From Raillietiella orientalis (taxonomy: Eukaryota): DNA of 64,000 nucleotides. Positions 8,850-50,696 of the stretch are shown one piece after another. Position numbers and translations under genes: made by a program. Numbering within the stretch: position 1 is the first letter of the stretch; each line of letters opens with the position of its first letter. The notes under the pieces are model-generated. The model saw nothing but the letters and a program-made list of their open reading frames with translations, was not told the origin of the DNA and made no database searches. The stretch is from assembly GCA_036172245.1 (NCBI GenBank), contig JAYWIR010000096.1:62001-126000 (forward strand), written 5' to 3'.

Positions 8850-8983
8850 TTTCCCCAAGTCCCACAAGGGGTGGGGTAAGTTTATTTTTCTATAAAAATA
8901 CAAAATTTACATTCGCACTCTCATTCACTCAATACAATTATTTTGCACTTGGGGGTCCTTGGGTTGCACTAGAGTTCTGCTTT

Positions 8984-14286: not shown

Positions 14287-14471
14287 CCTGGCAGCTGGTC
14301 TTGCTGCACGGGACCACTGCAGGTCCTTTGCCGCGATCTCCTCGCCGCTTCTTTTTTTTTGTTTCTTCTGGAAAACTTCCCCTTTCCGGGCACACACGAG
14401 CACAATGAACTGATTAAGTTGTCAAGCGCACAATACTTCGAGCCGCGGAGCAAGTTCACCGACTCGGCAGG

Positions 14472-18699: not shown

Positions 18700-19025
18700 G
18701 AACGGCGTAATGTGGTTACCCCTGCGACCTCTCGCCCACCCATACCCCGTCCCCGTTCGCTCGGTAAAATTTCCGGTGCCCATGCTTTTATCCCCGTGTC
18801 TTCCAGAGCGATCCCAAAGACCCTTATCCCGTCCTTCTTATTCATTGTTTTTATTTTATTTTGGTTTCTTTGTGTTTCCCGCCCGCCCACACCGTTCAAA
18901 AAACTGTTACTCTGGCCTGCGTGCCAGCAATATTCTCTTCATTCTTGTTCAGTCGTCGGTTAGAGTTTGGTTCCCAACTGGTTTATTTTGTATAATTGCT
19001 TTTTTTTTTTGGTTATGTTATATGG

Positions 19026-19055
19026 AATAAACGCCCCGGCGTGACCGGGTGAGAA
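19026..19055 (+). terminator. AATAAA signal plus terminal GC hairpin, representative copy
   Basis: AATAAAcgcCCCGGcgtgaCCGGGtgagaa; an equivalent occurs at every intact 3' end. Confidence 0.7.
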
Positions 19056-19069
19056 ATCTCTTGCGCTCG

Positions 19070-22000
19070 TACAGTGCAGACGTGTTTTCGAATCTATCCG
19101 CGCCAACGATCGGGCAACTTTGTGCCTGCGTTTTTGCTCGCACTTGTGTGTTCCTGTGCAATCTGCCAAGTAGCATAGTGCAACATGGCCAGTACACAGG
19201 ATAGTGTGGAGGAGCAAGCCACTGGATGCACTTCAGCTGCACTTGAAGTGGCCGCATCCTCCGTAATGGTTTCCTCGCCCCCGGTGAGAAGATACGCCGC
19301 CGTTACCTCTTAAAGACCAGGACCCTGCGATGCGGAGTTCCAGGCATATGTGTCATCAGGATACATGCCTGCACTCCGTTATAAGGTCTGTGGCCCCCTT
19401 AACGGGAGAATCGGTCGTGAGCTTAATGATGAGCTCGTCCGGATCGGCGTTCGCGAGGAGGAACTCCTTGCCATAATGCCTGCTGGCAGGATGGAATATA
19501 CGAAGATTCGGTGCAAGAACGCAGCACTTATGCAGCGCCTTCTCCGTACGCCGGTTTTACAGTCTGTAAAGACTGTGAACCCGTTGTTCGATGAAATGAT
19601 CGCCTGAATGCGATCGAGGTCTATGTCCGTCTTGTCGAGGGACAAATAGACGTCCCTGATGTTATTAAATTTTATTAGCCCCGTCTTGAAGATAATGGGC
19701 TTTACGTTGGTGCTTATTTCGACTATTGGTCGGTCCACTTTTAGAACTTTTCCGCTAAGCGGCTTACCGAATTTCCTAGGTGGGTGGACACTCGCCTGTC
19801 CAGCCGCCACCGACGCATAAGAAAAGGGCTGCGACGCCGCAGACGAACAAGATGGCGTCGCTCCCTGCACCGCGTGGACGCCCGCGGGTCCCGCCTGGGA
19901 CGCCACCGCCGCGGGCGCAAATCTCGACGTTGCCGCCGTTACCGCCGCGGGCGGCACCCTCGGAATCGCCGCCGCAGGCGCGACCTTCCCCGCCGCGGGC
20001 ACGATCGTCGGCGTCGCCGCCGCGAGCACGACCTCCGCCGTCGTCGCCGCGGGCACGAGCATTGGCATCGGCGCCGCCGGCGCGATCCTCGGCATGCCTG
20101 CCGCCACCTCGCCGTTGCCGCACGTTACCTCCATGGCTTCCATGGGGGACGACGGTCTCTCCACTCCTCCTCTATGTGCCTGCATTCTGGCAGCTGGTCT
20201 TGCTGCACGGGACCAGTGTAGGTCTTTTGCCGCGATCTCCTTGCCGCTTCTTTGTTTTTAGTTTCGTCTGGAAAACTTCCCCTCTCCGGGCACACACGAG
20301 CACAATTAACTGATTACTTTGTCAAGCGCACAATACTTTGAGCCGAGGAGCAAGTTCGCCGACTAGGCAGGAGAGGAGCAATCTCCCTACTGTCAAGAAG
20401 GTGACTCCGTTGCCGCCGTTTAAAGGCGTAGCGAAATCAACGCCATCAGAGAACGCAGCGAAAATCCCGGAGGTTTCCGCAACTACTGTCGCGGAAGCCT
20501 CCGAAAATCGCGAAGGCAAATGGAAGGTTGTGGAGAGAAGGAAAGAAAAATCTCCAAATAGAGCTCCGCAACCTTCATCCCTGAGCTCTTCCAAAGGAAA
20601 AAGAAGTCGCGGGAATACGAAAACACGCGCGGCTTGTCACTCTGCCAAGGAAAAAGCCAGAGCCTTCAACGCCTTCAAGTCCGCTTCTGTGACCGCCGAG
20701 AAGACCATTCCGGTGTAATCGGACGGATGCAAGCGCACGTCGATCGTGCGAGCATCAGACTCCGCAAAGGAGTCCGATAACGCAGCTGAACGACGCGTTA
20801 CTCGCGCTGGAGCGAGCGTCCGCAGGGCTGAAGCCCTGAAGCGTGGCACACTCGCCGCGGAACGGCCAGTGCTCACCCCGGAACCCACAGGTTCTGCACC
20901 CGGGGAGGAGAACCCGATTACGTGCAGCACAGTTGAGGCCGGTGGCGACCGCGCCCTCCAGCCCGTCGTGCTGCTTACTGCCCGCTCGCCGGGTGAAGCG
21001 AGCACCACGGCCTGGCTTTCCCAGCCGTGATGAGGGCAATCGCGTCTTCTCGTCGTGTTGCCGTAACGTCTTGGAACGTCAACGGGCTCCAACACGAGGA
21101 GAAGAGGCGACTAGTGGCTGACGCTCTGCGCGCCTTCGACTTGACGCTCTTGCAGGAGATTCACAGCATCTCCGGAGAGCAGGCTGCCGAAATCGAACGG
21201 CACGCGGGCGGAACGCTAATTTATAGGTGCGACGTTGCACGTACGTGCGGCGTCGCTTTCCTCGTGCGAGGAACTTTGGCGGGAGCGGTGCGCAGCGTTC
21301 GTTTCGACACGGAAGACCGAGTGGGAGAGCTTGTACTCAAGTGGTCCGACTCGATCGACCTTGTCGTAACCAACGTGTACGCGCCGACCGGTGCTGGACG
21401 ATGGGCCGAGAGGATAGAGTTCTTCGGTACCATACAAAGCCAGTGGCTCACTCGATCTCACCCTACTGTGGCCCATCTTATTGCGGGGGACTTTAAGGTC
21501 CACCTGCTTTCCGAGAATAGATCCCACAAAAGGGAATAGTTGCTAGCGGAAGAGATGTGCGCGTCCGTGCACGCGTGCAACTTGTTCGCTAGCGACCCTG
21601 TTATGGCAGCAACGCCGAACCACGTATACCTTGATGAACACTTGCTCTGTCGAGTGGGTCGGAGAGGTCCCGTGCCGTCCGTTCTTTCAGACCACAACAG
21701 GCTCGAGTTCGAGTTGCTGTCGCCAGGCAAGGGGCCTCCAAACTGTTTTTGGAGGATGACGGCAGACTGACTAAGCCACCCGGATGCGGCTGAGCATCTT
21801 AGCCAGTACCTCCTCGGCTTTGCCTCAAGTGAGCTCGAGGACTGGGACGATCTAAAAAGATCGGTCAGCGAGTTCTGCTGCCGTTTTCCCTCGCACCAGC
21901 TACCGCGCGACTTCGGAAAGAACGTAGCCAACAGCAGAGGTTTTCTGCAGGCGCGCGGACGTTGGTCGATTATTGGAGTACAAGTCCAAGTCCGAGCGCC

Positions 22001-24938
22001 AGGTCTGGCAGTCAAGGGCGACAGTTCCACTTGACGACTAGAACCGGGAATGCTCGTCTCCAGCCGACGTGCGACGGAGAGTCACGCGCTATTACTTTTC
22101 TCTGTGCGCAGAGGCACCGACGGAAAGCAGCCTCTCCCGGCTGCTTCTGCCGATTGATGCCCCTGTTGTAGACGAAGAGGAACGCGCGCGTCTTGATGAG
22201 CCCTTTACAACAGAGGAAATTTCCTCGGCCATCTCAGGGCTCAAGAGACGAAAAGCGCCAGGCGAAGATACGCTCCCCGCGGAATTCTTTCAGTGTTTTG
22301 CGACGGAGCTGATCCCCCTGGTGCTCCAACTCTCGTCGCTGATGCGAGACTCGGGCGATGTCCCCGCCTCGTTTCGCTCAGCGAAGATGCGTCTACTGCC
22401 GAAAGGCGGAGATTTGCGCCAACTGAACAACTGGCGTCCGATCACATTAGTGAATTCGGACGTCAAGTTGTTCTCCAAACTTTGGGTGGCGCGGATGGGT
22501 AGGATTGCGGAATCCTTGGTAAGTCCGGAGCAGACGTACGCTGTTCCTGGGCGGTCCATGGACGCGATTCTCTTGTTCATCCGCACATGGCTGCAATTGC
22601 ATCATCGTGTGGCGGTGGATCGTGGTGCGGAAGCGACGCCTCCGATCTCTCACCGACGAAGGCGCGGGACGCAAAGGGAGACACCGGGAGCCTTGGCAGT
22701 TGCAGTCGATCTGCACAAAGCTTTCGATAGCGTGAAGCAAAAGCTTCTTTTTGAGCTTTGGGAACGTCTGGGTCATCCAGTATCCCTTTAGGCGTACTTG
22801 CGCTCCTGCTGGCGCAACAAGATTACATCCATTGTTTTCAGTGGCTGTCACGTGTACGGCGTGCCGGTACGACGAGGAATTTTGCAGGGTGACAGCTTAA
22901 GCCCGCTGCTCTTCAGCATCTATTTTGAATTGGTGCTGGAGGCTTACAGGCTGACGCTAGCCAACCTGCCGAGCTCCTGTCCAGGTACGCCCGCCGTGGC
23001 AGCCTATGCCGACGACCTGCTTCTCCTGTTGCCCATGTCCACTCCGACAGCGTCGCTTGGAGATTTCTTTGAGTTGATCCGTCGTGGTGCGGGCGTGAGC
23101 GTTAACAGGAGTAAGTGTATGGTTGTTCCGGTTGGTGCGACGTGGGAGGGGCAGTCCGACTGGATCGACCTGGGGATCCCCACGGGCAGGTACCTCAGGT
23201 ACCTTGGCGTGCCGTTGGGCGACTTCTGCGTCTCAGAAGCGTGGTCGGACTGCCTTCGGAAGGCAGAGCGTGCACTTAGCCCGTTTTCAGGAGGCGAGTT
23301 CGTCTTGCCGGAACGGGCCTGCATCTGGAACACCTTCGTTGCCCCCCTCCTCCGCCCCCTGTTTTTTGTTTGTCCACCCCCCCAGGAAGTCAAAGTCTGG
23401 GCGCAGCGCCTTCTACGCAAAGCGTTGTGGGGCGCTGCAAGATCCCGTGTTAGACTTAAAGACTTGGTGGCGCCGCGTCAGGATGCAGGCTTGGGCATCC
23501 TCGACTTAAACAGCATCGAACTGCAGGTGCAGTTTCGCATGCTGCGGCTCTGTGCCAAGCTGTGGTGTACGCCGTCGTGCTTACCCTCACGCCTTATACT
23601 GAGGCGCTGCACGGGAAGCGAGGGACTGCTGTCGTTGCTACCTCACTTTCGGCACACCAGAATAGGATTTGGCTTCCCGCGGAGGCAGCTGTCCTCACTG
23701 CTCGAAGCCCAAAGCTGGATCTCCTGCCGCCCCATGAACATTAATGCATGGCGGCAGGAATCTTTTTCATCGTGGGCAGCTTTCGAAGGAACGCGCCCGG
23801 AAGATCTTCGACGCCTGCTACTTCTCCTCAGTCATCAAATGGACGAAGTCATGCAGGACAAGAAGTTGTCGGATCGTCTGGTCGCCACAATTCTCGCCGC
23901 AGCGCTGTCTGCCCTCAGGGCAAGCAACGACGGTTTCCTACCGGCGGAATGGGAGTTCTCCTGCAAAATAGCGGGAGTCAGTAAGCTCTTTGGCAGCTGG
24001 ACGACAAAGGAGCTGGTGCAAGCCGCCACACCTCGGAATCGGGCGAAGGGACTGCTTCGGTGGAGCGAACATTTAAGTGTGCCCCTCGGAGAGATTGTGG
24101 TTACCCCCGTTTGTTTAAACAGCTCCGCGTTATCTCTAAAGTGGAAACAAGATGTGCTGCTCTTTTTACATTGTGCATTTCACTGTAATAGGCAGCGAAG
24201 CATCGTTTCCGGGGGAGCTGCTTTGCCAAACTGTTTAAGGTGCGGAGAGATCGAGTCTTTTCCGCATTTTTTGCTGCACTGCGGTGACCTCCGGGAACTG
24301 TGGCGAAGGCTCACTTCGGCCATCATGCCACAAGGAGGCAGTGCTGTTGATGTGCTGCGAGGCTTCTTCAGCAGAAATGGACTTTCGGTTGGCGCGATTG
24401 TCGCGACCATGTGTTGCGTTCGCGCCATCGTGAAGGCCCGCTACGCCCTGGAGTTGTCAGCGCAGCGAAGGGAGGCTAACCTGCTTGCAGCTCAATTCAT
24501 GGTGAAGGCTTCAAGGTGATCTCATCTTCGTGACAAGGTGAATGAGGACATCACCGGCATACATCGCCGGTTTACACACCTTTGAGAACGGCGTAATCCG
24601 GTGACACCTGCAACCTCTCGCCCACCCATACCACGTCCCCGTTCGCTCGGTAAAATTTCCGGTGCCCATGCTTTTATCCCCGTGGCTTCCAGAGCGATCC
24701 CAAGGACCCTTATCTCGTCCTCCTTATTCATTGTTTTTATTTAATTTTGGTTTCTTTGTGTTTCCCGCCCCCCCACACCGTTCAAGAAACTATTACTCTG
24801 GCCTGCGTGCCAGCAATATTGTCTTCATTCTTGTTCAGTCGTCGGTTGGGAGTTTTGTTCCCAACTGTTTTATTTTGTACAATTGCTTTTTTTGTTTATG
24901 TTATATGGAATAAACGCCCCGGCGTGACCGGGTGAGAA
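19070..24938 (+). mobile_element. Second tandem X copy (X2), degenerate, with internal deletion and a Y remnant
   Basis: Colinear with X1; lacks the X1-equivalent interval about 7973-13633; ORF2 21030-24585 has multiple stops and a frameshift; AATAAA at 24909. Confidence 0.92.
19554..20355 (-). mobile_element. 5' remnant of a Y element at the same X-ORF1 site as in X1
   Basis: Matches 13634-14455 and is followed by tcgccgactaggcagg. Confidence 0.9.
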
Positions 24939-24952
24939 ATCTCTTGCGCTCG

Positions 24953-27226
24953 CACAGTGCAGACGTGCTTCCGCGTCCATCTGCGCCAACCATCGGGCAA
25001 CTTTGTGCCTGCGTTTTCCCTCGCACTTGTGTGTTTCTGTGCAATCTGCCATGTAGCATAGTGGAACATGGCCAGTACACAGGATAGTGTGGAGGAACAA
25101 GTCACTGGATGCACTTCAGCTGCACTCTAAGCGGCCGCATCCACCGTAATGGCTTCCTCGCCCCCAGTAAGGAGTTATGTCGCTGTTACCTTTCAAACAC
25201 CAGGACCCTGCGATGCGGAATTCTAGGCATATTTGTCATCAGAGTACATGGCTGCACTCCGTTCTAAGGTCAGTGGGATCCTTAACGGGAGAATCGGTCG
25301 TGAGCTCAATGATGAGCTCGTCCCGATCGGCGTTCGCGAGGAGGAACTGCTTGCCATAATGCCTGCTGGCAGGATGGAATATACGAAGATTCGGTGCAAG
25401 AACGCAGCACTTGTGCAGCGCCTTCTCCGTACACCGTTGACCATCAATGGCAAGGAAGTCCTATCTACCGCGATGGACGACTCTTTTGTCGTTCAATTTT
25501 GCGATCACCTGTCCGCGCGGATCACCGCCACGAACAGGCGTGTTCTGCGTGAGCAGCTGCAGGTGAACGGCTCGATCGTTCACCTGTGGTTCATATGCCA
25601 GACTCGCGCGTGCGACCAGTGCGGCAAAGATGGGCACCGAATTAAAGAGTGCTTCTCTCCAAGATGCCGCTATTGCAAAGATTCCGGGCACGACATTAAA
25701 AAGTGCCCGGTACTTGCAAGAAAAAGAGCCGCAGGGGAAATTCGTCGGGTTTAAAAGACCACTGCAAGAAAAGCCACAGCGGAAAATAAAAAACGTCGTC
25801 CGCAAAAACTCGGAAAAAACAACGAGCGATCCGCGGATGAAAAGAAAGCTTCCCCGCCCGCAACGCCCCGGAAGGGGAAAGTCACGGTGGGGAAGCCAAT
25901 TAAAAAGGGGCGCGAGGGTTTGACGCGTAACGTGCCCTCTCTCCCTTCCGAACTCGCAGGCATTTCTTCGAGCCAGGAACCAGGAAATCTCTCTAACACA
26001 TTGGAGGCAAAGGTAGGAAAACACGAAGATCGCAACAGTGCGAAGACTTCTTGCCGCGTTCCGTTGTCCCTTCCGAGTTCAGGACAGCCCAACTGCAGCG
26101 CGGGCCCCTCTGCAAAGGCTACGAAAGCCGTAAAAAGCAGCCTCGCGACAAGCAAAAGCACGCTACATGCAGTCGCCCCATCGCCGATACGGCAGTAGAG
26201 GAGCAATCTCCCGACTGCCAAGAAGGTGACTCGGTTGCCGCCTGTTAAAAGCTTAGCGAAAGCAACGCTTCCAGAGAAGGCAGCGAAAATCCGGGAGGTT
26301 TCCGGAAGTACTCTTCGGAAGCCTTTGAAAATCGCGAAGGCGTATGGAAGGTTGTGGAGAGGAGGAAAAAAAAATCTCCAAAAAAAGCTTCGTAACATTC
26401 ATCCCTGAGCTCTTTCAAAGGAAAAAGCCGTCGCGCGAATACGAAAGGACGCGCGGGTTGTGCCTCTTCCCAGGAAAAAGGGAGCGCCTTGAACACGTGC
26501 ATGTCCGCTACTGTGACCGCCGAGAAGACCATTGCTATGCTATCGGACGGATGCAAGCGCACGTCGTTCGTGCGAGCATCAGACTCCGTAAAGGAGTCCG
26601 ATAGCGCCGTTGAACGACGCGTTACTCGCGCGGGAGCGAGCGCCCGCAGGTCTGAAGATCTCAGGCGTGAAACACTCGCCGCGAAACGGCGAGTGCTCAC
26701 CCCGGAACCCACAGATTCTGCAGCCGGTTAGGATCAGTCGATTACGTGCGACACAGTTTTGGCCGGTGACGACCGCGCTTTTCAGCCCGTCATGCCGCTT
26801 ACTGCCCGCTCGCCGGGTGAGGCGAGTACCACGGCCTCGCTTTCCCAGCCCTAATGAGGGCAATCGCCTCTTCTTGTCGTGTTGTAGTGACGTCTTGGAA
26901 CGCCAAAGGCCTGCAACACTTGGACAAGAGGCGACTAGTGTCTCACGCTCTGCGCGCCTTCGACTTGACTCTCCAGCAGGAGATTCACAGCATCTCCGAA
27001 GAGCAGGCTGCCGAAATCGAACGATGCGCTAACGGAACGCTACTTCATAGGTGCGGCGTTGCACGTACGTGCAGCGTCGCTTTTCTCTTGCGAGGTACTT
27101 TGGCGGGAGCGCTGCGCAGCGTTCGTTTCGACACGAAAGGACGAGTGGGACAGCTTGTACTCAAGTGGTCCGACTCGATTCACCTTGTCGTAACCAACGT
27201 GTACGCGCCGAGCGGTGCTGGACGGC
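24953..27226 (+). mobile_element. Third tandem X copy (X3): no Y insertion, degenerate ORF1, truncated within the EN
   Basis: Colinear with the X1 5' UTR and ORF1; TAATG at 26852; stops after NVYAPSGAGR. Confidence 0.9.
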
Positions 27227-28134: not shown

Positions 28135-28149
28135 GGGGGGTCGGCTGTG

Positions 28150-29100: not shown

Positions 29101-30484
29101 CACACTTGCCGCCGCGCGAACGCCGACGCCGCGACAAAGTCGCGAGCCCAGCGTGAGCAGCGACGACCGGGACTTGAACAAGGCGGCGGAAGAGTTGGCA
29201 GCCATGCTCCAGCAGCCTTCCAAGGCCCAGAAGAAGGCCTTGAGGCGTCCGGCTGAGGTGGAAGGACCGGAGACTTCCGAGTCCGAAGCCGAAGCCGGCA
29301 ACGCTCCGGCAGTCGCTCTCCCGAAGCGCAAACCGGGCCGCAAGGTAGGCAAACCGCGGCGCTCCGCACCTCCACCGGCGGAGGAGGAAATGCGGTCGGA
29401 CCACGACGACGGGGAGGCGATGTCCGCGAGGTCTCGCGGCTCCTCGCCGGAGGCGACCCTTGCCAAGCAGGATCCTCCAACCACCACCACAACCACCGAC
29501 GGACCGCCTCCTTGCGAGCAACAGCCCGTCGCAATGGACACACAACTCCTGCCTGCTGAACAGCAGGCGGAGGACGGTAAGCAAACACCATAAACACACC
29601 AATGCGTGGACTCTCCTCTTGCCGGTGACTGCGCGTAATCGGTTGGAACGTCAACGGGTTGCGCGACGACGGCAAGACGAGTGAAGTGGCCGCCAGCCTG
29701 CGGGACTTCGACCTGGCGCTTCTGCAGGAGACGCACGTGCTCCACGCAGCGGAGACCCAAGAAATCGAACGGATCGCAGGCGGGCGGCTCATATACGAGA
29801 ACGGGAGAGACCACACCCGCGGTGTCGCTTTCATGCTTAAGCCAGCCGTCGTTCATGCGCTGCGCGACGTGCATTTCGACGGGGAAGGTCAAATCGGGCA
29901 GCTTGTTGCCAAGTGGTCCGACGCGATCGAACTCGTCGTGACCAACGTGTACCCGCCCGGCACGAATCACAGGCGCGGGGAACGCACTGCGTTCTTCGAA
30001 GGCCTGCGGCGAGATTGGATGGCCGAAGCAGACATGCGAAAGGCGCACCTCATTGCCGGGGACTTTAACGTCCGCCTGCTGGCAGGTGCGCCCGACATTC
30101 GCGCACAGCTGGTCAACGAGATGTGCGCTGCCATGCACGCGCGCAACTTGTTGGCCGGTGACGCCGGGACGGAGACGAGGATCGACCACATGTTCCTCGA
30201 CAACCACCTGTGTTTGCGGGTGGGAAATCGAGGGGCAGTGCCATCCGAACTCTCCGACCATACCCGGCTCGTGGTAGAAATACACCCGCGCGGTAGAGGT
30301 TTACCCTCCACAGCGTGGCGTTTGCCAGGGGACTGGTTGCGCAACGCAGGAGCAGCGCAACATCTTCGCTCGTTCCTGCAAGGCTTCCATCTGCAGTCGC
30401 TCGCGGACTGGGACGACTTGAAGAGCTCAGACCGCGAGTTCTGCGACCAGTTTCCCATGAACCGTCTCCCTCCAGGTTTCGGCA
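29101..30484 (+). mobile_element. LINE fragment 'J': ORF1 C-terminus (stop 29593) and EN pseudogene (ATG 29602), cut at PPGFG
   Basis: WNVNGL, LQETH, NVYPP, GDFN, IDH, SDH, WDDLK, LPPGFG; an in-frame TGA lies near the ORF2 start. Confidence 0.88.
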
Positions 30485-30485
30485 A

Positions 30486-33426
30486 TGCCACCCGGATACG
30501 CCAAAACGTTTATTAGAAACATTTCAACGGTCAATACAGAACGTGGTACAAGGCCCCACTGACGGCCACGGAATGCCGGAACTGCCAAGACATGGGACGC
30601 AGCCCGGTGTGGCTCTCCTCGGCAGTGGAGGGGGATAAGGAAAAAACAAAAATAAAATAAAATAGAAAAACAAACCACAAAAGAAAGTTTAAAGGGGCGG
30701 GAAGGGATCACAGAAAACTGCTGGGAGCGCCCATCCTTTGCAGGATGCCTTCTAGTTCCATTTTCAGCTTTCCTAGATGGGGCCATCGGAAAGCTCTCAG
30801 CAGGAAGCGCGAAGCATACTCGATAACGTCCCTCACGATGCAGTCTTCATCTCCGGCATCACTCCAGGCCGCCACGATACCACGAATGCAGCAAAGTGCT
30901 GCCAGGGCTGCGGCTGGACTGAGAGCGTCCCGCACGAAGACAAGACTGAAGATACATTCAACATTGCCACCATCCAGTATCCGGAGGGCCGTTTTCAGAC
31001 GATCCCAAAAAATCCGGACGGCAGGGCATTTAACTAAGAGGTGGGGGAGCGACTCCCGCACCCCACACCTGGCACACGCAGAATTTACTCTTCCCCGCGT
31101 CCAGTGGAAGCGGCGCGCGTTGCAGGGTAGACCACAATGCAGCCACAGAAGCGCAGATTCTTGCCACTCCAGGGGGAGAATCCTGGATCCAAGTAGAACC
31201 GGGGGCCACTTCAGGTCATCCAATCGAATTCCGAGCAGCTCGCTCCATCTTCTTAATCCACGCGGCTGGAGAGTAGGGGTCGTTGCATCTGTCAACTCTC
31301 CCATGATCCAGTCGCTCATCATATTCTCTCTGCCTGCGATACGGCAGCAGACTTGCCACCTTGGCTTCCGGCTTTCGTAAAGCGCCCTTTGGAGAAAGGG
31401 CATCGCCGTAACAAGGGGTGTGCCTTCCGCCCACGTGCAACTCGGTGGAAATTCAAGAATTTCACGGAGAGTGCGGCGGGCGTATAAGCCGACTCGCAGG
31501 CGGTTCATCCGGTCTTCGCACCTGTGGTTCTGCTCAGCCCAGGTGCCAGCAGTCTCTTCCAGCCAAGCGAAGGAGTTGGCAGGGCCACAAACCATCCAGT
31601 CGTTCTCCTTTGCCAGGGTTGCCATGCGGCCGAGCATTAGACCGCATCTTCGAATCTTCCGGCCAGGGCACAGAAGAAACGATGCGAGTCCTTCGCAGCG
31701 GGACACACGCCTGGCCAGGAGGCAGGCCGGAATGCACCAAGCGGTGCTCCACATCTTCGCTGCGATGGCGAGGGTCCGCCATCGCAGCTGGATTTCCACG
31801 CGCTCCAGCGTCAGGATGCTGAGACCGCCGTCCCGACGCGGAGCGCACAAGTCCTTCAAAGGGACTCGGGGCCTCCCCTTGCCCGAAAGAGCTATGCGGA
31901 GGAGGTCCTTAGTCCGCTTTTCTGATTCCACGGGGGCGGGGCAAACAAAAAGCAAAGGGCGGAGGATGGGGGCCGCGAAGGCGTTCCGAACCGCGGCCCG
32001 TTCCGGCAAGTGAAACCTGCCCTCCAGGAACGGGCCGATCGCCGTCTCGACTTTCTGGAGGCAGCTGGACCACGCTTCCGCAGGGGAGAAGTCCCCCAAC
32101 GGCACATTGAGGTACTTGATGCACCTCACCGTGGGGATACCCAGACGGACCCAGTCCTGCTGCCCAGCCCACGTCGCTCCAACTGGCAACACTGACGACT
32201 TCGCCCTGTTAACCTGTAATCCGGCCCCACGGCTAAGCAGGTCGAAGAAATCTCCGACCGCCTTAGCCGGAATGGACATAGGTAAGAGGAGCAGAAGATC
32301 GTCGGCATACGCCGCTACGGCTGCCGTGCCGGCGCACGAGCTCGGCAAGGGGGCCAAAGTCACCCTGTACGCTTTCAGCACCAACTCAGCGTAGGTGCTA
32401 AAAAGCAGGGGGCTGAGGCTATCGCCCTGCCTTATGCCCCGCCGCACCGGCACGCCATACACCTTCTGTCCACTGAAAGTAATTGAGATTATCGCGTTCC
32501 GCCAGCAAGAGCGCAGGTAGGTAATCAAGGAGGGTGGGAAGCCCATGCGACCCAGGAGCTCCAAGAGGAGTTCCTGGTCAACACAGTCGAATGCCTTATG
32601 GAGGTCGACTGCGATCGCTAAGGCCCCCTTTCCCGCATGAAGGTCCCTTCCCTGTTTCACTGGCGGCCCCAAAGTAGGGTTGCAAATTTTCCCTTTCCCT
32701 TCTTTATTACTCCGCTGCGCGTGCATCCATGTGCTCGCGAAGAAGAGGTTGTCCTCCATACTTCGCCCGGGAACAGCGTAAGTCTGCTCCGGGCTAATTA
32801 TGGAATTGGACACCTGCCCCAATCGCGAAGCCCACAGCCCGGCAATCAACTTGGCGTCCGTGTTCACAATCGTGATCGGACGCCAGTTGCAAAGTTTCCT
32901 GAGGTCTCCTCCCTTCGGGAGGAGCCTCACCCTGACTGACCGAAACAAGGCGGAAACATCGCCTTCGTCTTGGTATCCCGTTGTCAACTCGAGCACCAGG
33001 GGGGCCAGCTCTTCCGCGGAACTCTGAAAGAACCCTGCGGGCAAGCCGTCCTCCCCTATCGCCTTACGCCTCTTGAGCCTTTTGATACCGGCTAGAATTT
33101 CACCGGTCGTGAAAGGCTCATCGAGGCTTTCTCCCTCCTCCTCCTTTATCGCCACGGAACCACTCATGAGCAATCCCCGCGAGGCGTCTTGTTCGGGTGG
33201 TGTTTTGGCGTAAAGGGAGGAATAAAAACACCGCACGAGTTTCCGTACGGCAGACGGGGACGATCTTTCCCGGCCCATGTCATCCAGCATGCTGGCGGAC
33301 CCGGATTGCCAGGCTTGTCGCTCGGCTCCGGCGCGGTATTCGGCCAGGCGACGGACATTGGGGTTCCTCTCGTGACGACTAGCGTGCAAATACGCGCGTT
33401 CGTTGCGAGCCCCTTTGCCGAATCCC
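30486..33426 (-). mobile_element. Z-related LINE 'K': open ORF2 from GFG to the stop at 30708, plus 3' UTR
   Basis: About 900 open codons with DLHKAFD, GIRQGDSLSP, YADD, CARCGVRESLPHLLVKC; AATAAA plus hairpin at about 30486-30514. Confidence 0.92.
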
Positions 33427-36400
33427 TTGGCGAGTGGAGGTGTGTTTCCTTCGCTCCCGAGTGACTCGACAGGAAGCGGTTTTTTTTCTTGTGTTGTTTG
33501 GTGTAGAACATCGTTGGTGTCCGATGGCAGCAATGCCTGAGGACACCACGATGGAGGTAGGTGTGAGGGAGGCTTGCCCACCCCCACAGCCTACAGAATC
33601 AGGGGCGTCCGCCCCGGAATCGCCCTCGCCGCTAAAGGCGAGGAGCTGGAGCGCCATGGTGGCCGCGCCGAGCGCGGAAACCATGGCCGAGATGGCGCCC
33701 TACCGGGCAGCTGGGTACAAGCACAGCTTGGTTTACCAGGTGAGCAATCTCTTTGACGGGCGAACTGCACGCGCTTTTTCGAAAGCGCTGCAGAACGACA
33801 ACGTGTTGGAAAACGACCTTGACGGTCTATCCGTGCTCAGCGGGGGTCAGCGCGTCGAGGTTGTCTGCAAGGACATCACCTTGGCGCAAAGCTTGATTAC
33901 CACCCCCCTATACGTGGACGGACGCAAGATCCTACCAGTCACGATGGACCGCTCCGTAGTGGTCCATCTGACAGGGATCACCAGCCGCATGACGTGGTCT
34001 GCGGTTGGTGATCAGTTGAAAAAGTATGGGGATGTTCACGCGCTATGGCCAAAGGCCACAATCTTCGATGGCTACGATAGCCTTTTCGGAGGGCAGGCCG
34101 CCGCGCGCGTGACGCTGAAGAAGAGTGGTCTTCCCCACAAACAAGAGGTCAATGGCGGAGACGTAGACCTCTGGAAGGTACGGAAACCCCGCTTTTGTGG
34201 CTAATGCAATGCAGTAGGACACTTGCACAAGCGGTGCCCGAACATTGTGTTCCACTTATGCGGAGAGAAGGGCCACGTACGCCGCGTATGCCCTAAACGC
34301 CCCACTCCGGTGCCGCCTGCAGCAAAGAAAGCAAAGGCAAAACGCGGTAACCTGATCGAAAGACCAAAAAGAGATACTGGCCGGCAGCAGCCGCTAGCCC
34401 CTCTTCCTCCCACACAGGCGTCGAAAACAAAACCCTCCGAAGACGCGGGAGTCCAATACGGTTGGCAGCTGGTCAAGGCCAGAAAGGAGAAAAAAATGCC
34501 ATCCGCGGAACCCGCGAAAGCGGTAAAAAAGACAGACGGCAAGGCGAAAAAACCTGGGCCGCGCTCTAAGACCATGCGGGAGTGTACGGTAGCACTGGAG
34601 CGCATAGCCGTTCCCGAGATTGCCACCCGGGGCGACGAGCCTTCCCTCGCCGTTTCCGCCACGCCCGAGGTTCGCGACGGCGAATCCTCTGTTTACACAG
34701 AGGGTGAGCCGCGCGAAATAGCGACGGTCGAAGCCGAGGACGCCGCGTTCACTCAGGCAGCGGAGGAACTCGCGGCCACGCTGGCCGAGCGTGGGAACCC
34801 CTCGCGCAAGGCCGTGCGAAGGCCGGCAGCCGCGAAAAAGGCCCCCACTGTTTAGTCGGACCTGGGGGCCAAAAGTGCATCCTCCTCCTCGGAGGCACCC
34901 CCAAGGAAGTCGGGACGCAAGTCCCAGAAACCCAGGAGGCGCGACCCCTCCACCAGCGAGGAGGAGAAGCAGGAAGGTAGCGGTAGCATGGGAATCCCGG
35001 AGGGGGAACTCCCACGCTCGGAAGCCGTCGAGCCGGCCACCCCCATGGAGGAGGGTGAGCAGGGGGGGGGAAGTCCTCCCTGCAGTCGCCGAGCCTGAAC
35101 AGCCCGCCCCCATGGAGGAGGGCCAACAGGTAGGCGCGACCCCACCTGAGGGTGACCTGCTCGACGCGCCGTTACCGATGGAGGAGGGGGACCAGGTGCA
35201 CGCAGCGCCTGAATCTCCTCCTCCACCTAGCGTCCCGCCCCAATAGGTGGCGGACGCCGCATCGCCATCTTCCCAGGAGTAACACCTGGACTCGCCAGTC
35301 GCCGTCGGATTCGCGCCGCCTGTTGGAACGTCAACGGGCTGCGCGACGACGGTAACAGGCAAGATACGGCCGACAACCTGCGTGAGCTCGACCTGGCCCT
35401 GCTGCAGGAGATCCACTTGATCACCGCGGCAGACGCCCAGGAGAACGAGACGATCGCGGAGGTTCGGTTGTATTGGCGGTGCGGCCTCCGCAACACCTGC
35501 AGGGTTGCGTTCTTCGTGAAGCCGTCCGTCGACGCTGCCGTGAAGGGCATGCGCTTCGATGACGACGGTCGGGTCGGTCAGCTGATTCTCAGCTGGTCCG
35601 ACTCGATCGAACTGATCGTCACGAATGTGTACGCCGCCAAAGGTAAACAGGGATACAGCGACCGTACCAGGCTGCTGCAATCTTTGAAGCGCGACTGGCT
35701 GGCGGACACTAACGTGCGGAAGGCTCACCTGATAGCGGGAGATTTCAATCTCTGTCTGCTAACAGGTGAGCCAGAAACACAAGAGAACGCGATGAACGAG
35801 TTGTGCGCCGCCATGCGTGCGCGCAACCCGTTCGCGGGTGAGAGGGGAATGGTCCGCAGCATCGACCACGTCTTCCTCGACGCTGACCAGTGTTCACGGG
35901 TCGGCAAACGGGGGAGGGTTGCGTCGACGTTGTCGGACCATTCTCGGTTAATTTTCGAGATGCGGCCTCGCGACAAAGGACCGCCATCCAGAGACTGGCG
36001 TCTGCCGAGGGACTGGACGCGACTCTCAGGTGCGAAGGAACACCATCGCGAATACCTGAGAGGCGTCACGCTCCGAAATCTCCAGGACTGGGACCTTTTT
36101 AAGGAATCGGTCCGAGAGTTCGGTGAGCAGTTCCCCCTGGATCGCCTGCCCCCGGATTCGGCAAGAGTGCTTGCAACCATCATGCCTATTCACAGGCTCG
36201 TAGGTACGAGAGAACCCCTAATGTCCGTCGCCTGGCCGAGTACCACGCCGGGGCCGAACGCCAAGCATGGCAATCCGGGTCGGCCAGCTTGCTGGACGAC
36301 CAGGGCCGTGAATGTTCCTCCCCGGCGTCGGTACGGAATCTCGTGCGGAGTTTTTATTCCTCCCTTCACGGCAGGGAGCCCCCATATCGAAACGCTTCTC

Positions 36401-39124
36401 GGCGCTTGCTTCCGGATGACGCCCCGGCAATAGGGGAGGAGGAGATGGAAAGCCTCGACGAGCCTTTTACCACCGGCGAAATTCTCGCCGGTATCAAAAG
36501 GCTCAAGAGGCGTAAAGCTCCAGGGGAAGACGGCTTGCCCGCAAAGTTCTTTCAGAGCTTCGCGGAAGAGCTGGCACTCCTGCTGCTTAAGTTGATCAGG
36601 CTGATCCGAGACGAAGGCGATGTTCCCGCCTCGTTTCAATGAGCCAGAGTGAGGCTCCTTCCGAAAGGGGGAGACCTCAAGGATTTGAAGAACTGGCGTC
36701 CGATCACGATCGTGAATACGGACGCCAAGTTGATCGCAGGGCTATGGGCTTCGCGTCTGGGGTAGGTGGCAGAATCCGTAATTAGCCCAGAGCAGACTTA
36801 TGCTGTTCCCGGGCGAAGTATGGATGCCAACCTCTTCTTCGCAAGCACATGGGTGCACCTGCAGAGAAGAGAAAAGAAAGGGATAGGGAAAGTGGGCAAC
36901 CCCACATTAAGGCCGCTAGCCGGGCTGGGAAGGGACCCCCGGGCAAGGAAAGGGGCCCTAGCGCTCGCAGTCGATCTCCACAAGGCGTTCGATTGCGTAG
37001 ACCAGGAACTCCTCTTGGAGCTCCTGGGTCGCATGGGCTTTCCACCCTCTTTGATTTCCTACCTGCGCTCTTGCTGGCGGAATGCGATAATTACCGTCTC
37101 TTTCAGCGGTCACAAGGTGCATGGAGTGCCGGTGCAGCGGGGCATAAGGCAGGGAGATAGCCTAAGCCCCCTGGTCTTGAGCACCTATTTTGAGTTGGTG
37201 CTGAGAGCGTACAGGGTGAATCTGGTCCCATTGCCAAGCTCGTTCCCCGGCACGTCCGCCGTTGCAGCGTACGCCGACGATGTTCTACACTTGTTGCCAA
37301 TGTCCACCCCGGCAAAGGCGGTCGGAGACTTCTTCGATCTGCTCAGCCGCGGGACCGTACTGCAGGTTAACAGGGCGAATTCGTCGGTGGTGCCAATAGG
37401 TGCGGCGTGGGCAGGGCAGCAGGACTGGATCCGCTTGGGGATCCCCACGGGCAGGTGCTTCAAGCACCTTGGCGTTCCGTTGGGCGACTTCTGCGTTGCA
37501 GAAGCCTGGTAGGACCGTCTCCAAAAGGTGGAGTTGGCGATCGGCCCGTTCCGGAACCGCAAGTTTTACTTGCAGGAGCGGGCCGCGGTGTGGAACGCGT
37601 TCGCGGCCCCCCACCTTCGCCCCTTACTTTTTGTTTGCCCCGCCCCTCCCATCATACAGAGACGGACCAAAGCCCTCTAGAGGACTGCCCTTTGGGGCAC
37701 AGCGAGGTCGCGAGTCCGATTGAAATACTTGTGCGCTCCACGCAGGGATGGTGGCTTGGGCCTCCTTACGTTGGAGCGCATCCAAAATCAAACAACAATT
37801 CAAAATTTAGCCCTTGCGGCTTGCTTATGGATGACGCCATGGTGCGATCGGGCACGGCTCCTCGCGAGAAGAGCGACCGGCTGCAGAGGATTGTCCTCGA
37901 TCCTCGTGGCCTACCAGCGCAGCCTCTGCAACTGTGGCCCCGAGTTGCGCCAGATGGTCGCCCTGATGAGGGAGAATACCTGGATCTCCTGTCTCTCCGC
38001 TAACTGCACTGCCTGGCTTCAGGAGTCAGCTTACGCGTGGGCTAAGATCAACGACACGAGCGAGGCGGAATACAACTGCCTACGACGAGGACCGTACGCT
38101 CGACAGCCGCTGCAGGATATTATCAACACGCTTCGGAAATTTCTGTGGGCTTCTCTCAGCCCCCTTGCCCCCGTTCTGTCCTCCCTAAAAAACTTAAGGA
38201 GCAGAAACGAGCGGGCATCGTGGGAAGTGTCCTGCCTCAGCCGAGGCAGGAAATAACCTACAAATGCGTGGACGACTCGGGAGATCAAGGACGCTGCCAC
38301 CCCCAGCGTCCCGCCTCACGGACTTGCGCGCTAGGGAGTGCTGCGTGCAATACTCCCGGAGGAGTTGAAGTGGCCCTTAGCGTGTTGAAATTGCGGCACA
38401 CTTCCGTTGAAGTGGCAGGAGACGGCGTTGCTATTTCTGCACTGGGGACTGTTAAGCAGAGCACGCCTGTCTCACTGGACACTGGAGTATGTGGATGCCC
38501 GCTGTGGCGAGTGCGGAGAAAGAGATACCTTCCCGCATCTCATTCTCGAGTGTGTCGCCCTGAATGGTCTCTGGAGTCGAATCGCCCCAATCCTCCAGCT
38601 TCCAGTAGACGACCCTAAGGAAATTTACCGTCCCCTCTTTCTTTGCGACGGTCTGCGCCCCGCTGCGTCTCTAGCAGTCCTCTGCTGCGTGCGCGGCATT
38701 GTGCAAAGGTGGCACGCCAGAAGAAGAGGCTCAGGATGCAAAGACGCCATCCACTGGATGACGATCCCTTTAGAGATGGCGACAGGGTGGCGTCTACCTT
38801 TCACAATAAGAACCGAACTGGACTGCATCCTCAACATTATGCGGAGGACCGACTTAGGCGCCCAGTAATCCCTTCCCTGCCGCTTCCTTCTCCCCATACA
38901 ACGGTTTCCCTCCTTGTTATGTCTCTTTTTGTTTGATTTTGTTCTAGTTTTCCCTTCCCATGCGCCTCGGAAATGGACCTAACCGGTATATGCACCGGCA
39001 ACCGACAAGTCAACCAAGGTGGGAAAACCAAGTGTTTCCCACAATTAACTTTTGAAAGACTTTATTATCTAATTCTTGTAGAAAATTAGAATAATAAATG
39101 CCTCGGCATATCCTTGTGGCAAAC
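33427..39124 (+). mobile_element. Full-length but chimeric, degenerate LINE 'L' (Z-type 5' part, V-type 3' part)
   Basis: ORF1 33524-35282 and ORF2 35282-38868, both with stops; matches Z copies up to about 37425 and matches 57757-59462 after that. Confidence 0.88.
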
Positions 39125-40667
39125 TTTGGCCGCGCTTGAGCACTCCAGGCCCTGGTCGTCGAGCAGACAAGCTGCTCCTGACTGCCAGACCTGGCGCTCG
39201 GCCTTGGCCTTGTACTCCGCAAGGTACCAGACGTCCGGGCATCGGAAGAATTGGCGGGCCTGCAAAAACTTTCTGCTGTTGGCCACGCCTTCATCGAAGC
39301 CACGCGGAAACAAGCGCAAGGGGACTCGGCTGCAGAACTCGCGGACCGATCTTTTCAGATCGTCCCAGTTCACGAGCTCTCGAACGGCAAAGGTCCGGAG
39401 ATGCTGGCGGAGGTGCTTCGCAGCCACCGGCTATCTCAACCAGTCGGCCGGCAACCTTTAGACGTGCGTCGGAGGGCCCTTGCCAGGCGGGTGTATCTCA
39501 AACTTCAGCCTGTAGTGGTCGGAAACCTCGGACGGCACGGGACCTCTTCGACCCACCCGACAATGCAGGTGATCGTCGAGGAACACATGGTCCGGCAAAG
39601 CACGCATCCCGGGATCGTCGGCCAGCAAATTCGAGGCGTGCACCGACGGGCACACCTTGTTCACCAGCCGTTTCTCCCGGCGACGGTGAGACTCCTTCGA
39701 TAGCGCGTGGACGTTTAAGTCCCCGGCTACGAGGTGAGCCACGTCGGCGCCGGAGTTGCTGAGCCAGCGGTCGCGCAGTCTCTCGAAGAACTCCAGTTTC
39801 TCGGTGTGACGCGCGGAGCCGCTTGGCGCGTACACGTTCGTGACGACAAGGTTGATCGATTCGGACCACTTGAGAACAAGATGGCCCACACGACCTTCCT
39901 CGTCGAAACAAACACTCCGCACCGCTCCCGCCACCCTGCCCCAGAGAAGGAATGCGACTCCGCAGATATTCTGGGAGCCTGACCTCCAATGGAGCGTCCC
40001 GCCTGCGCGAACTTGCAGATTGGCCGCTTGCTGTTCGGAAAGTGCGTGAATCTCCTGCAGCAGGGCCAGATCGAAGTCGCGCAAGACGTTGGCAACCAAT
40101 TGGTTCTTCTCGTTGTCCTGCAGCCCGTTGACGTTTCAACAGGCCACTCGGACGCGACGTGAAGAAGCGAGACCGCGCATTGCTGCTACGGATATGGAGG
40201 TGCGTTCCTCGCCCCGTCCGGCGAGGCATCAGCCGGGAGCACGGCGGATGAGGTAGCGCAAGCGCTTCCTGTCCCCGCCGCGCCGCTCGCGGCCGGCTCG
40301 GTGGAGTCGAGGACCATTGCCTCGGGCTCCGAGGAGCATCGGGAACCGTTCCCGGCATCAGGCTCTTGCCTGGCAAGTTTTGGTTTGCGCGCAGCCCTTG
40401 CCTTGACCGGGGCCTGGCGAGCCTTAGCGCTGCCCTCGGACTCCACCTCGGAGTCCGAATTGCGCGCGCGCGGCGGCGGGCGTTTCGCCTGCCTCTTTGT
40501 TTGCTGGCAGCCCGGAGCTGGTCCAGCACTCTTAGAGGGTGCCTTCGTCGCCGATCCCCCTTTCGGGGTCACGGCTTCGGCAGCTCTCATCTCGCTGCGG
40601 GTGTTTGCGGCAGCGCGCGCGGCGGCAGCAGAGGCTTTTCCTTGCGCCTTCTTGAGTGCGCGGGGTT
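39125..40667 (-). mobile_element. LINE fragment 'M': ORF1 C-terminus (stop 40186) and EN/linker pseudogene (ATG 40180)
   Basis: LQEIH, NVYAP, GDLN, PDH, SDH, WDDLK, LLDDQGLECSSAAK. Confidence 0.87.
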
Positions 40668-44393: not shown

Positions 44394-45030
44394 GCCGTTA
44401 ATGCGCTGCGCGACGTGCACTTCGACGGGGAAGGTCAAATCGGACAGCTTGTTGCCAAGTGGTCCGACGCGATCGACCTCGTCGTGACCAACGTGTACGC
44501 GAGCGGCACGAGCCACAGGCGCGGGGAACGCACTGCGTTCTTCGAAGGCCTGCGGCGAGATTGGATGGCCGAAGCAGACATGCGAAAGGCGCACCTCATT
44601 GCCGGGGACTTTAACGTCCGCCTGCTGGCAGGTGCGCCCGACATTCGCGCACAGCTGGTCAACGAGATGTGCGCTGCCATGCACGCGCGCAACTTGTTGG
44701 CCGGTGACGCCGGGACGGAGACGAGGATCGACCACATGTTCCTCGACAACCACCTGTGTTCGCGGGTGGGAAATCGAGGGGCAGTGCCATCCGAAATTTC
44801 CGACCATCCCCGACTCGTGCTAGAAATACACCCGCGCGGTGGAGGTCCACCCTCCACAGCGTGGCGTTTGCCAGGGGACTGGTTGCTCCTCGCAGGAGCA
44901 GCGCAACTTCTTCGCTGCTTCCTGCAAGGCTTTCATCTGCAGTCGCTCGCCGACTGGGACGACTTGAAGAGCTCAGTCCGCGAGTTCTGCGACCAGCTTC
45001 CCCTGAACCGTCTTCCTCCAGGTTTCGGCG
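44394..45030 (+). pseudogene. EN fragment of the J family, cut at PPGFG
   Basis: Near-identical to about 29845-30484. Confidence 0.88.
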
Positions 45031-50685: not shown

Positions 50686-50696
50686 GGGATTCGGCA

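Follow-up and report, generated by a model that had tools for sequence, protein, structure and literature searches.

Related L1-like elements probably insert at short coding words in the ORF2 of other LINE copies within a nested array

Composition of the array

The window, i.e. the whole 64-kb stretch of DNA that was analysed, is an array of non-LTR (L1-like) elements with an APE endonuclease (EN) and a reverse transcriptase (RT), and forms a nested cluster made up of LINEs only. In these elements, EN is located at the N-terminus of ORF2 (Pfam PF03372, Exo_endo_phos, in D, J, L and O; E 3.8e-08 to 3.7e-15) and RT lies downstream of it (PF00078 in D, K, C and O). The best PDB match of the RT is human L1 ORF2p (E 1e-44, versus 6.5e-15 for R2), which the EN also matches (E 3e-4). 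ORF1 is situated upstream of ORF2; a CX2CX4HX4C zinc knuckle is seen in the ORF1 translation of L, and the Pfam zf-CCHC model scores 21.3 bits in the ORF1 of C (cut-off 20.8) and 20.6 bits, just below the cut-off, in that of O. Taken from the sequence, these features are consistent with APE-type non-LTR retrotransposons of the L1/Tx1 superfamily. A close relative was not found by protein searches, in which the best match shares 31% identity and the best named matches, from fish, Closterium and Microbotryum, share 26–27%.

None of the copies examined carries a 3' poly(A) or A-rich tail; their termini are ...CCCGGGTGATAA or ...GGGTGAGAAA, reached about 25 nt past AATAAA and joined directly to the target. 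RNA folding of the 3' termini predicted a CCCGGG-N4-CCCGGG hairpin in O and K', with z-scores that are not significant. A metagenome scan with this unspecific 3'-terminal hairpin pattern gave at least 121 matching stretches, and none of the 80 loci compared showed DNA or protein similarity to the window. In one sequencing run of a relative (X1), 20% of words were common; its contigs over 29501–49500 were short and mostly <95% alike, and 6 of 269 loose ends are listed. The window itself contains a composite 5.9-kb unit in tandem duplicate (13635–19553 versus 19555–25436, 94% alike). The features that bear on the insertion junctions are collected in Table 1.

Table 1. Elements, element fragments and isolated words at the junctions discussed, in window positions
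Feature	Position	Strand	Description
B	4100..7485	-	Decayed ORF2, aa 62-1193, 13 stops
R'	7486..9112	+	D-type 5' UTR and ORF1; antisense to B
D, E, F	13635..27225	+	D-type copies, head to tail
GGGGTCGGCTGTG	28137..28149	+	Flanked on the left by the S 5' UTR and on the right by the G 3' end, both minus
J	29602..30484	+	L1-like ORF2 EN fragment, reference aa 12-308 (Pfam Exo_endo_phos E 3.7e-15, tblastn, motif)
K	30485..33425	-	Z1 RT-to-3'-end part; tblastn aa 302-1197 of reference ORF2
L	33426..39124	+	Full length: 5' UTR, ORF1 with CCHC knuckle, EN, RT, 3' end
N	39125..40186	-	Fragment of a D-related family spanning EN to linker (aa 10-364); cut at ~aa 359 by the L 3' end
J'	44396..45030	+	Second J-type EN fragment, aa 97-307; ends in GGTTTCGGCG (45021-45030)
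K'	45031..50686	-	Full-length Z1; 3' end (...CCCGGGTGATAA) adjoins J'
Single GGATTCGGCA copy	50687..50696	+	Marks the head-to-tail tandem, separating the K' 5' end from the O 3' end
O	50697..56473	-	Full-length Z1; ORF2 with 1 stop and 1 frameshift
P	56474..59462	+	Divergent (Z2) RT-to-3'-end part; starts with GGATTCGGCA (56474-56483) right after the O 5' end
Q	59494..60038	+	5'-truncated: ORF1 end to EN ~aa 64
'last'	60039..64000	-	D-type element, continues past the window edge

Junctions at the GFG word

The EN fragment J ends in the target word GGTTTCGGCA (30475–30484), to which the reverse-complemented LINE 3' end of K (...CCGGGTGGCAT) is directly joined. The original prediction, that J is cut at the GFG word by the 3' end of the minus-strand K, thus holds. 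This word is a 10-mer, GGWTTCGGCR, encoding Gly-Phe-Gly (GFG) between EN and RT, so that the cut indeed separates the two domains as had been proposed. A motif scan found eight matches in the window against 0.97 expected, a number reached in 0 of 100 shuffles. All eight are located at ORF2 GFG codons or element junctions: five at junctions and three uninterrupted, in L (36154–36163), K' (47951–47960, minus) and O (53615–53624, minus). The three uninterrupted copies confirm that Z-type elements carry their own target.

The Z1 lineage comprises K, K', O and the 5' part of L, and Z2 is a divergent element type (P). Three of the five Z1-lineage 3' ends are found at the GFG word, at the same nucleotide: K into J, K' into J' and O beside K'. 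At the other side of the elements, each of the three full-length Z1 5' UTRs (L, K' and O) begins directly after GCCGAATCC, with a different sequence further upstream, namely antisense K RT for L, the O 3' end for K' and antisense P RT for O. At the non-tandem GFG junctions, the insert is antisense to the target in four out of four cases. Three instances of the word at junctions go beyond the original prediction, i.e. the junction of J' and K' at 45030/45031, the word that separates the 5' end of K' from the 3' end of O (50687–50696), and the junction of the O 5' end with the P RT at 56473/56474. Among the 13 ORF2 copies that span the GFG site, seven carry the 10-mer, four of them occupied; the other six differ from it at two to three bases, and none is occupied. 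As judged from these sequences, independent Z1 copies within this one window appear to lie at one nucleotide of one target sequence in a fixed orientation. The claim that GFG is a recurrent junction point is upheld by these three of five 3' ends and three of three full-length 5' ends, but it does not cover the 3' ends of M, of a 31-nt mini-copy, and of L and P (the Z2 3' module), which are all away from the word. M and the mini-copy end at one common ORF1-C-terminal position in sense orientation, the latter adjoining the P 3' end, and the junctions of M with Q' and of the mini-copy with Q are 82%–85% alike on both sides. Q and Q' had been considered as antisense RT fragments, a reading rejected because tblastn gave nothing better than E 0.1; they are sense-orientation ORF1 C-termini.

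Could the recurrence reflect inheritance rather than repeated targeting? Ancestral junctions copied by segmental duplication and blurred by gene conversion would also recur, and the tandem 5.9-kb unit, the similarity of J and J' (~95%) and the likeness of the two mini-copy and M junctions all speak for such copying. Comparison of the adjoining sequences points the other way: the K and K' 3' regions are only ~70%–79% alike, a divergence too unequal for one block, and therefore the J–K and J'–K' junctions are not one duplicated segment. Moreover, K is truncated at GFG and K' is not, each of the three 5' junctions has a left flank unrelated to the other two, and the D-type site described below repeats the pattern in unrelated sequence. 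We thus consider duplication quite improbable as the source of the junctions. An in-place inversion of the 3' part of J and a 3' transduction of J by K were both discarded, as K' beside J' is full length and J and J' are far closer to each other than K and K' are.

It had been proposed that K is in turn cut at its own word by the 5' end of L. The word of K, GGATTCGGCA at 33416–33425 (minus), does adjoin the L 5' UTR (CTTGGCGAGTGG), which has the same start as that of K'; however, the missing EN half of K was not found past the L 3' end. K has no stop in 901 codons and L has seven in-frame stops and one frameshift, and K is therefore probably a later arrival than L. The intact three-deep nest of J, K and L does not stand: the L 3' end joins N away from any GFG site, and L itself is chimeric, resembling O to ~37,400 and P beyond. 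The GFG-position word of N, GGCTTCGATG, is intact and has no match to the target.

The boundary of K and L is best understood as a young K whose own GFG word has been joined to the flank word of an older L. This reading favors an explanation without any endonuclease specificity, in which cDNAs or broken ends anneal at the 9-nt word and ectopic recombination among dense inverted copies puts junctions at that word. The underlying homology is real, since GCCGAATCC, the leader at the Z1 5' end, and the internal GGATTCGGC are reverse complements, giving a 9-nt inverted identity; in addition, L is itself recombinant and the array is rich in rearrangements. Nevertheless, three element 3' termini without homology to the GFG word are joined there at the same nucleotide, and the D-type 3' ends at GCGCAAGAGA are likewise left unexplained. 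Nine bases are also few for recurrent recombination at one point. Homology-driven joining is thus unlikely to account for the junctions as a whole.

On the right-hand side of the array, P is decayed (10 stops and 2 frameshifts), and J' and P could be one split target, although their flank words differ at two of ten bases (GGTTTCGGCG versus GGATTCGGCA). No insertion in the window shows both target halves unambiguously; the EN of K and the RT of J are absent. Relative decay fits an insert younger than its target when O (1 stop) is set against P (10 stops), and likewise when K (0 stops) is set against J. Private-substitution counts were abandoned for dating, as they are confounded by module swapping in the O 5' region. 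The arrangement of an antisense RT part, a word and a full-length element, seen for K with L and for P with O, is exactly the topology predicted by fold-back self-priming, in which a full-length cDNA ending in GGATTCGGC-3' pairs with the internal GCCGAATCC and copies back, yielding both partners in one event. The two arms should then copy one RNA, yet over the first 1.2 kb of RT, K is ~80% identical to L and P is ~60%–70% identical to O, while L and O share 85%–94% there. Given that the junctions of J with K and of J' with K' and the tandem are left unexplained as well, fold-back seems highly improbable.

A second word in D-type elements

The phenomenon is wider than GFG, as a second family uses a different word within EN. 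This D-type word, GCGCARGAGA, covers Ala-Gln-Glu (AQE) codons, and all four of its occurrences in the window are at D-type junctions, two antisense and two tandem. At the first antisense junction, Q is cut after GCGCAAGAGA (60029–60038), where the D-type element at the window edge (minus strand) has its 3' end (...ACCGGGTGAGAAA) joined antisense to the Q EN. At the second, B is cut in its EN at the same codon site as Q (GCGCAGGAGA, 7476–7485) by the plus-strand D-type 5' end of R'; the stretch 7475–7972 is 96.6% identical to the E 5' end at 19056–19553. The two tandem junctions have the same layout, in which TCTCTTGCGC (19057–19066 and 24940–24949) comes right after the 3' end of D (19056) and of E (24939) and is followed by the next 5' UTR. 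D, of which ORF2 (15097–18696) is intact, and E lie within the 5.9-kb repeat unit; a single event may therefore underlie both the D–E and the E–F junction. Taking both words together, six of six non-tandem junctions are antisense, and the D-type site offers an independent parallel to the probable GFG targeting.

The D-type ORF2 keeps Gly-Phe-Gly yet lacks the Z1 word (D-type form GGCTTCGGAG), and at the AQE position it has a word other than the one at which D-type elements insert. Further words are hinted at once each in the window, for the G/S type and for T. In the former case, GGGGTCGGCTGTG matches the EN coding sequence of O at ~54319 in 12 of 13 bases; the O EN holds GGGGTCGGCTGT there, the same word that precedes the S 5' UTR, making GGRLY a possible third target word for the G/S type. 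An LMR word (CTGATGCG) is possibly the target of the T family.

Proposed insertion mechanism

The junctions enable us to propose, with a probability of roughly 0.7, that members of related L1-like families insert at specific sequences within the coding region of ORF2 in other LINE copies. Among the points against targeting, four of the 11 recognisable 3' ends in the window either adjoin no word of an ORF2 or adjoin one that does not recur, and K looks younger than L, the reverse of the order expected for L inserting into K. The domain make-up and the nearest solved relative, human L1 ORF2p, fit target-primed reverse transcription. Initially, a sequence-specific Z1 EN would nick the sense strand of the target right after GGWTTCGGCR, a step that, like the specificity itself, we infer. 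The freed 3' OH would then prime reverse transcription exactly at the element 3' terminus (...CCCGGGTGATAA, with no poly(A) kept), as recorded by the junctions. Priming in this manner from a sense-strand nick means that the insert would always be antisense to its target. A second copy of the word, which the junctions place between the insert 5' UTR and the remaining target, would be either a 10-bp target-site duplication or an RNA 5' leader that guides 5' joining by homology.

As the word is present inside the ORF2 of the insert and at each flank, every insertion would offer new sites. Use of the internal site would give a strand-flipped nest, and use of a flank copy a head-to-tail tandem. It had been claimed that each insertion supplies a new site and flips strand; the new site and the antisense rule at non-tandem junctions agree with this claim, whereas the K'–O tandem involves no flip. 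The 5'-flank copy was reused there, and strand flipping is therefore only one of two outcomes. D-type elements would act likewise at GCGCARGAGA, and later recombination and replacement among the many homologous copies would have scrambled the nests.

A more far-reaching version, which we put forward tentatively and rate at somewhat below even odds, is that sister L1-like families live wholly inside each other, each with an endonuclease that recognises its own 10–13-bp ORF2 word, and always antisense. Targets would then be regenerated and array growth would be autocatalytic, host genes would be spared, and families might escape one another by a synonymous change of the target codons.

Together, a defined coding word, an orientation that is always antisense and copies of the target at both flanks would provide a testable molecular rule. 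If true, this rule would explain dense, self-contained and self-limiting clusters that spare genes, and why inverted nests and head-to-tail runs are found side by side. It would also explain how sister families are able to compete through synonymous positions of the target codons, and the natural APE-type endonucleases would gain members that recognise long words.

Comparison with known systems

Human LINE-1, the ORF2p of which is the nearest solved structure by sequence, shares with the window elements the domain order and an upstream ORF1. Its preference for nicking at TTTT/A is only loose, its copies retain a poly(A) tail and it inserts throughout the genome; the window elements differ in having a defined 3' terminus that lacks poly(A) and in being found repeatedly at 10-bp words. 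Site specificity is known from other LINEs, for instance Tx1L, which inserts in the Tx1D transposon, and R1, which inserts in 28S rDNA. APE-type site-specific LINEs are found in the Tx1 and R1 clades, including TRAS/SART at telomeric repeats; as far as the accessible text of the source describes them, they share with the present elements an APE EN plus RT and insertion at one nucleotide of a multicopy target in a fixed orientation, their targets including transposons (PMC4640811). In contrast to these examples, the target here is LINE ORF2 coding sequence of the own or a sister family, entered in antisense; each insert brings a new target, and related families in one array use different words.

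LINE-only nested clusters are already known, from Zepp/ZeppL at algal centromeres and Cnl1 in Cryptococcus. By the descriptions in the accessible parts of the sources, the green-algal Zepp/ZeppL elements are L1-type LINEs that occur almost only in clusters of nested copies, which are GC-richer than the genome and lie at putative centromeres (PMC3446292, PMC8226300, PMC9940879, PMC11005252, bioRxiv 10.1101/2025.03.28.645958); the window resembles them as a LINE-only nested cluster. The accessible portions of the Zepp/ZeppL literature cited here give no target word, orientation rule or nesting mechanism. Such clusters are explained, in those portions of the literature covered, only as preferential self-insertion or centromere-specific insertion. 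If true, the mutual nesting of sister families would supply a concrete sequence-level mechanism for LINE-only clusters, e.g. those at green-algal centromeres. The non-LTR element Cnl1, according to the accessible text, prefers to insert within itself and forms nested arrays that are tandem-oriented and subtelomeric (PMC9942834), whereas in the present array inserts that are not part of a tandem lie antisense at a coding word, with tandems arising as a second outcome.

Probable target words within ORF2

Copies of non-LTR retrotransposons on both strands fill nearly the whole 64-kb window (55%–62% G+C). In their long frames, Pfam identified an APE domain (Exo_endo_phos) at the N-terminus as well as an RVT_1 domain, and a CCHC knuckle lies in ORF1, upstream of ORF2. 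Among solved proteins, human L1 ORF2p is the nearest (E 1e-44); a search of the protein collection revealed no close relative, the best match being 31% identical. Given the intact ORF2 of copy D (1200 aa, 15097–18696) as a ruler for tblastn, about 20 ORF2 copies or fragments were located. The window resolves into 23 segments with 22 junctions between them, about half of which show no recurrent word. An inverted repeat (1–448 and 8849–9296, 95% complementary, ~8.4 kb apart) encloses the copies T, A, B, and R'.

The word GGWTTCGGCR (GFG word) covers the Gly-Phe-Gly codons at aa 303–305 of the D ruler, in the EN–RT linker. A motif scan of the window gave eight occurrences against 0.97 expected, a number reached in 0 of 100 shuffles, and all eight are located at GFG codons or junctions. 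Three more sites match nine bases without the tenth purine (3264, 59810 minus, and 27593 minus), none of them at a junction. The original prediction that the EN fragment J is cut at this word by the 3' end of K proved exact to the base (30484/30485), and the uninterrupted copies noted near 36150, 47950, and 53615 are indeed present (Table). Beyond these instances, the J'/K', K'/O, and O/P junctions also lie at the GFG word. The same nucleotide of the word is joined by three 3' termini (K, K', and O). All three full-length 5' UTRs of the Z1 lineage (L, K', and O) directly follow the complement of the word, with the sequence further upstream differing each time. The four non-tandem inserts all lie antisense to the element that contains the word. 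Homology-driven joining alone, with no targeting, cannot explain the 3' junctions.

Junctions, target words and 3' termini mapped in the window
Feature	Position and junction	Strand	Basis or remark
J, EN fragment	terminal GGTTTCGGCA 30475–30484	+	direct reading, motif scan
K	from 30485, plus strand reads as a LINE 3' end in reverse complement; aa 302–1197; own GGATTCGGCA 33416–33425	−	tblastn, motif scan
L, full-length	5' UTR start 33426	+	
Uninterrupted GFG words	36154 (L), 47951 (K'), 53615 (O)		
J'	44396–45030, terminal GGTTTCGGCG; then 3' end of K'	+	~95% identical to J
K', full-length	5' UTR end 50686; then single GGATTCGGCA 50687–50696; then O 3' end	−	
O, full-length	5' UTR end 56473; then GGATTCGGCA and RT part of P	− (P +)	
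3' junction of copy 'last'	antisense of Q EN, cut after GCGCAAGAGA, 60029–60038		codons Ala-Gln-Glu, ~aa 62–64
B	cut at Ala-Gln-Glu codon position, GCGCAGGAGA 7476–7485, by 5' UTR of plus-strand D-type copy R'	−	
3' termini of the common form	19026–19056, 24909–24939		
3' termini of the common form	28150–28178, 30485–30514, 45031–45060, 50697–50727, 60039–60069	−	

The GFG position is spanned by 13 ORF2 copies. The 10-mer is present in seven of them (J, J', K, P, L, K', and O), four of which are occupied; the other six differ by 2–3 bases (D, E, 'last', N, B, and M) and none is occupied. These counts favour matching-word copies as the occupied sites and point the right way, with p ~0.07 by our own Fisher estimate on small numbers. 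Element C (8984–14421, minus strand), of a much more divergent family with 27%–30% aa identity to D, has open frames of 870 aa (RT) and 640 aa (ORF1, CCHC knuckle above the Pfam cut-off), and a recognisable GFG word is absent from its homologous position.

The junctions might instead be copies of a single one spread by duplication, but flanks and inserts have diverged to unequal degrees, which contradicts this reading. J and J' are ~95% identical up to the word, whereas the 3' regions of K and K' past it are ~70%–79% identical; moreover, K is truncated at GFG and K' is full length. Since neither feature fits one duplicated block, we counted J/K and J'/K' as separate events. Fold-back self-priming of the cDNA would predict near-identical arms, but K and L are ~80% alike, and P and O ~60%–70% within the initial 1.2 kb of RT.

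A second family uses another word. The D-type copies D, E, F, and 'last' (minus strand) have the 3' terminus ...ACCGGGTGAGAAA, always followed by TCTCTTGCGC. All four occurrences of GCGCARGAGA (AQE word, in EN) in the window are at D-type junctions, antisense in both non-tandem cases; at D/E and E/F, the space between one copy's 3' end and the 5' UTR of the copy that follows is exactly this 10-mer. The D-type's own sequence at the AQE position is GCTGCCGAAA; thus, the D-type targets other families rather than itself. Motif scans exclude chance recurrence of the GFG and AQE words. The array does contain a segmental duplication (13635–19553 vs 19555–25436, 94% identity), so that D/E and E/F are possibly one event. 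In this tandemly repeated 5.9-kb composite unit, a D-type body is combined with 500 nt from the 5' end of the copy that follows and with ~800 nt of other sequence, which takes the place of the ORF1 middle; the ORF2 of D is intact and that of E has 5 stops.

A putative insertion model

Taken together, an ORF2-derived word is joined at one nucleotide by element 3' termini with inserts antisense, and a word copy is present on both the 3' and 5' sides of inserts. Following the established TPRT model for APE-type LINEs, the endonuclease would nick the target sense strand after GGWTTCGGCR (codons GGA TTC GGC A/AG, nick at the slash). The freed 3' OH would then prime cDNA synthesis at the defined RNA 3' terminus, and finally the 5' end would be joined at a second word copy, either a 10-bp target-site duplication or an RNA-borne leader. 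The 5'-side copies are GGATTCGGCA in three of three cases, and J', possibly P's partner, has GGTTTCGGCG at its native site. This mismatch favours an RNA-borne leader, or means that J' and P are not halves of one element. Whichever its origin, every insertion would leave usable words, one internal and one per flank. The predicted new site with strand flip at each insertion would hold for the internal word, while use of a flank word would yield the unflipped head-to-tail tandems K'-O, D-E-F, and G-S. We consider site-specific antisense targeting of LINE ORF2 probable (roughly 70%); the original interpretation has partial support, and the D-type family and the tandem outcome widen it.

K was also thought to be cut at its own GFG by the 5' end of L. 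The word GGATTCGGCA does adjoin the L 5' UTR, but L does not form a clean nest within K. The L 3' end (39124) adjoins N (minus strand) at ~aa 359 of N, whose GFG-position word is intact and non-matching, and neither K EN nor J RT was found downstream in the window. Along the initial ~1.2 kb of RT, L is 85%–94% identical to O and 60%–79% to P; from about column 1400 on, it is 74%–89% identical to P and 46%–73% to O. By this comparison L is a chimera, in which the two 3' modules Z1 and Z2, deeply diverged from each other, have recombined at either the RNA or the DNA level. Along 36154–39124 (against O 50697–53632 and P 56474–59462), L is O-like up to ~37,400 and P-like past ~37,550, where identity to O is only 46%–59%.

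K has no stops or frameshifts in 901 codons, against 7 stops and a frameshift in L, at whose rate ~5 would be expected in K (own estimate); K is very probably younger than L. We infer that K might be a later cDNA primed at the still-intact J word, whose 5' end would have been resolved at K's own GFG word via homology with the word flanking L, replacing the older target copy. The EN-less K RT fragment (30732–33434, minus strand) lies between decayed copies in an open frame of 960 aa (30708–33590), which may be very young or may have stayed open for some other cause. O (1 stop) in P (10 stops) and R' (504-aa open frame) in the decayed B (13 stops) fit the simple order of a younger insert. Seven of the 11 recognisable 3' ends are at ORF2-derived words (K, K', O; D, E, 'last'; G). 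Elsewhere, M and a 31-nt mini-copy end in sense at one ORF1-C-terminal position of Q' and Q, and L and P at unrelated places. The earlier picture is accordingly corrected on the K/L order, the chimerism of L, and exceptions to the word rule.

Further junctions and shared termini

The 13 bases between the G 3' end and S 5' UTR (28137–28149) match the O EN coding sequence at ~54319 in 12 positions. The T 5' UTR (minus; 1925–1945 (−) / 1936–1946 (+)) adjoins A RT (plus), cut at CTGATGCG (Leu-Met-Arg, aa ~453; n = 1), an 8-mer that D, E, and 'last' carry intact at the corresponding place in RT. Both are single hints of further target words. The M-type 3' end (...GGGTGTAAA) occurs at 44048–44165 and 59460–59577, in the latter as 31 nt only (59463–59493); in both places the ORF1-C-terminal start CCYYYAAGGCTGGCAAG... 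(peptide KAGKKAVRRP) comes next, in sense. The M/Q' and mini-copy/Q junctions, at a common ORF1-C-terminal position and with flanks 82%–85% alike, could represent either a third site of recurrent insertion or a single junction duplicated long ago.

All families have in common the 3' terminus AATAAA-CGCCCCGG(N4-6)CCGGGTG-A(N)AA and the 5' UTR core GGACGTG(T/C)TTT, 10–14 nt past the leader word; the leader of 10–13 nt is their sole difference at these terminal signals. Fold z-scores of the 3'-terminal hairpin were not significant. Poly(A) is not retained in the copies, despite AATAAA ~25 nt before the terminus.

Comparison with known systems

Tx1L is known to insert in Tx1D. The array resembles self-nesting LINE clusters, described for Zepp in Coccomyxa/Chlorella (PMC3446292) for ZeppL at Chlamydomonas centromeres (PMC8226300, PMC9940879, bioRxiv 10.1101/2025.03.28.645958, PMC11005252), and for Cnl1 in Cryptococcus, reported to prefer itself as insertion site (PMC9942834). 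The Tx1 and R1 clades include APE-type site-specific LINEs, some of whose targets are other transposons (PMC4640811). In the excerpts of the literature on self-nesting and site-specific LINEs that we consulted, we found no coding-sequence target word, antisense rule, or single array whose sister families differ in their words, and literature searches likewise gave no such case; the primary Zepp papers may bear on this point. The present array differs from Zepp and ZeppL, as excerpted, in its defined word in coding sequence and its antisense rule.
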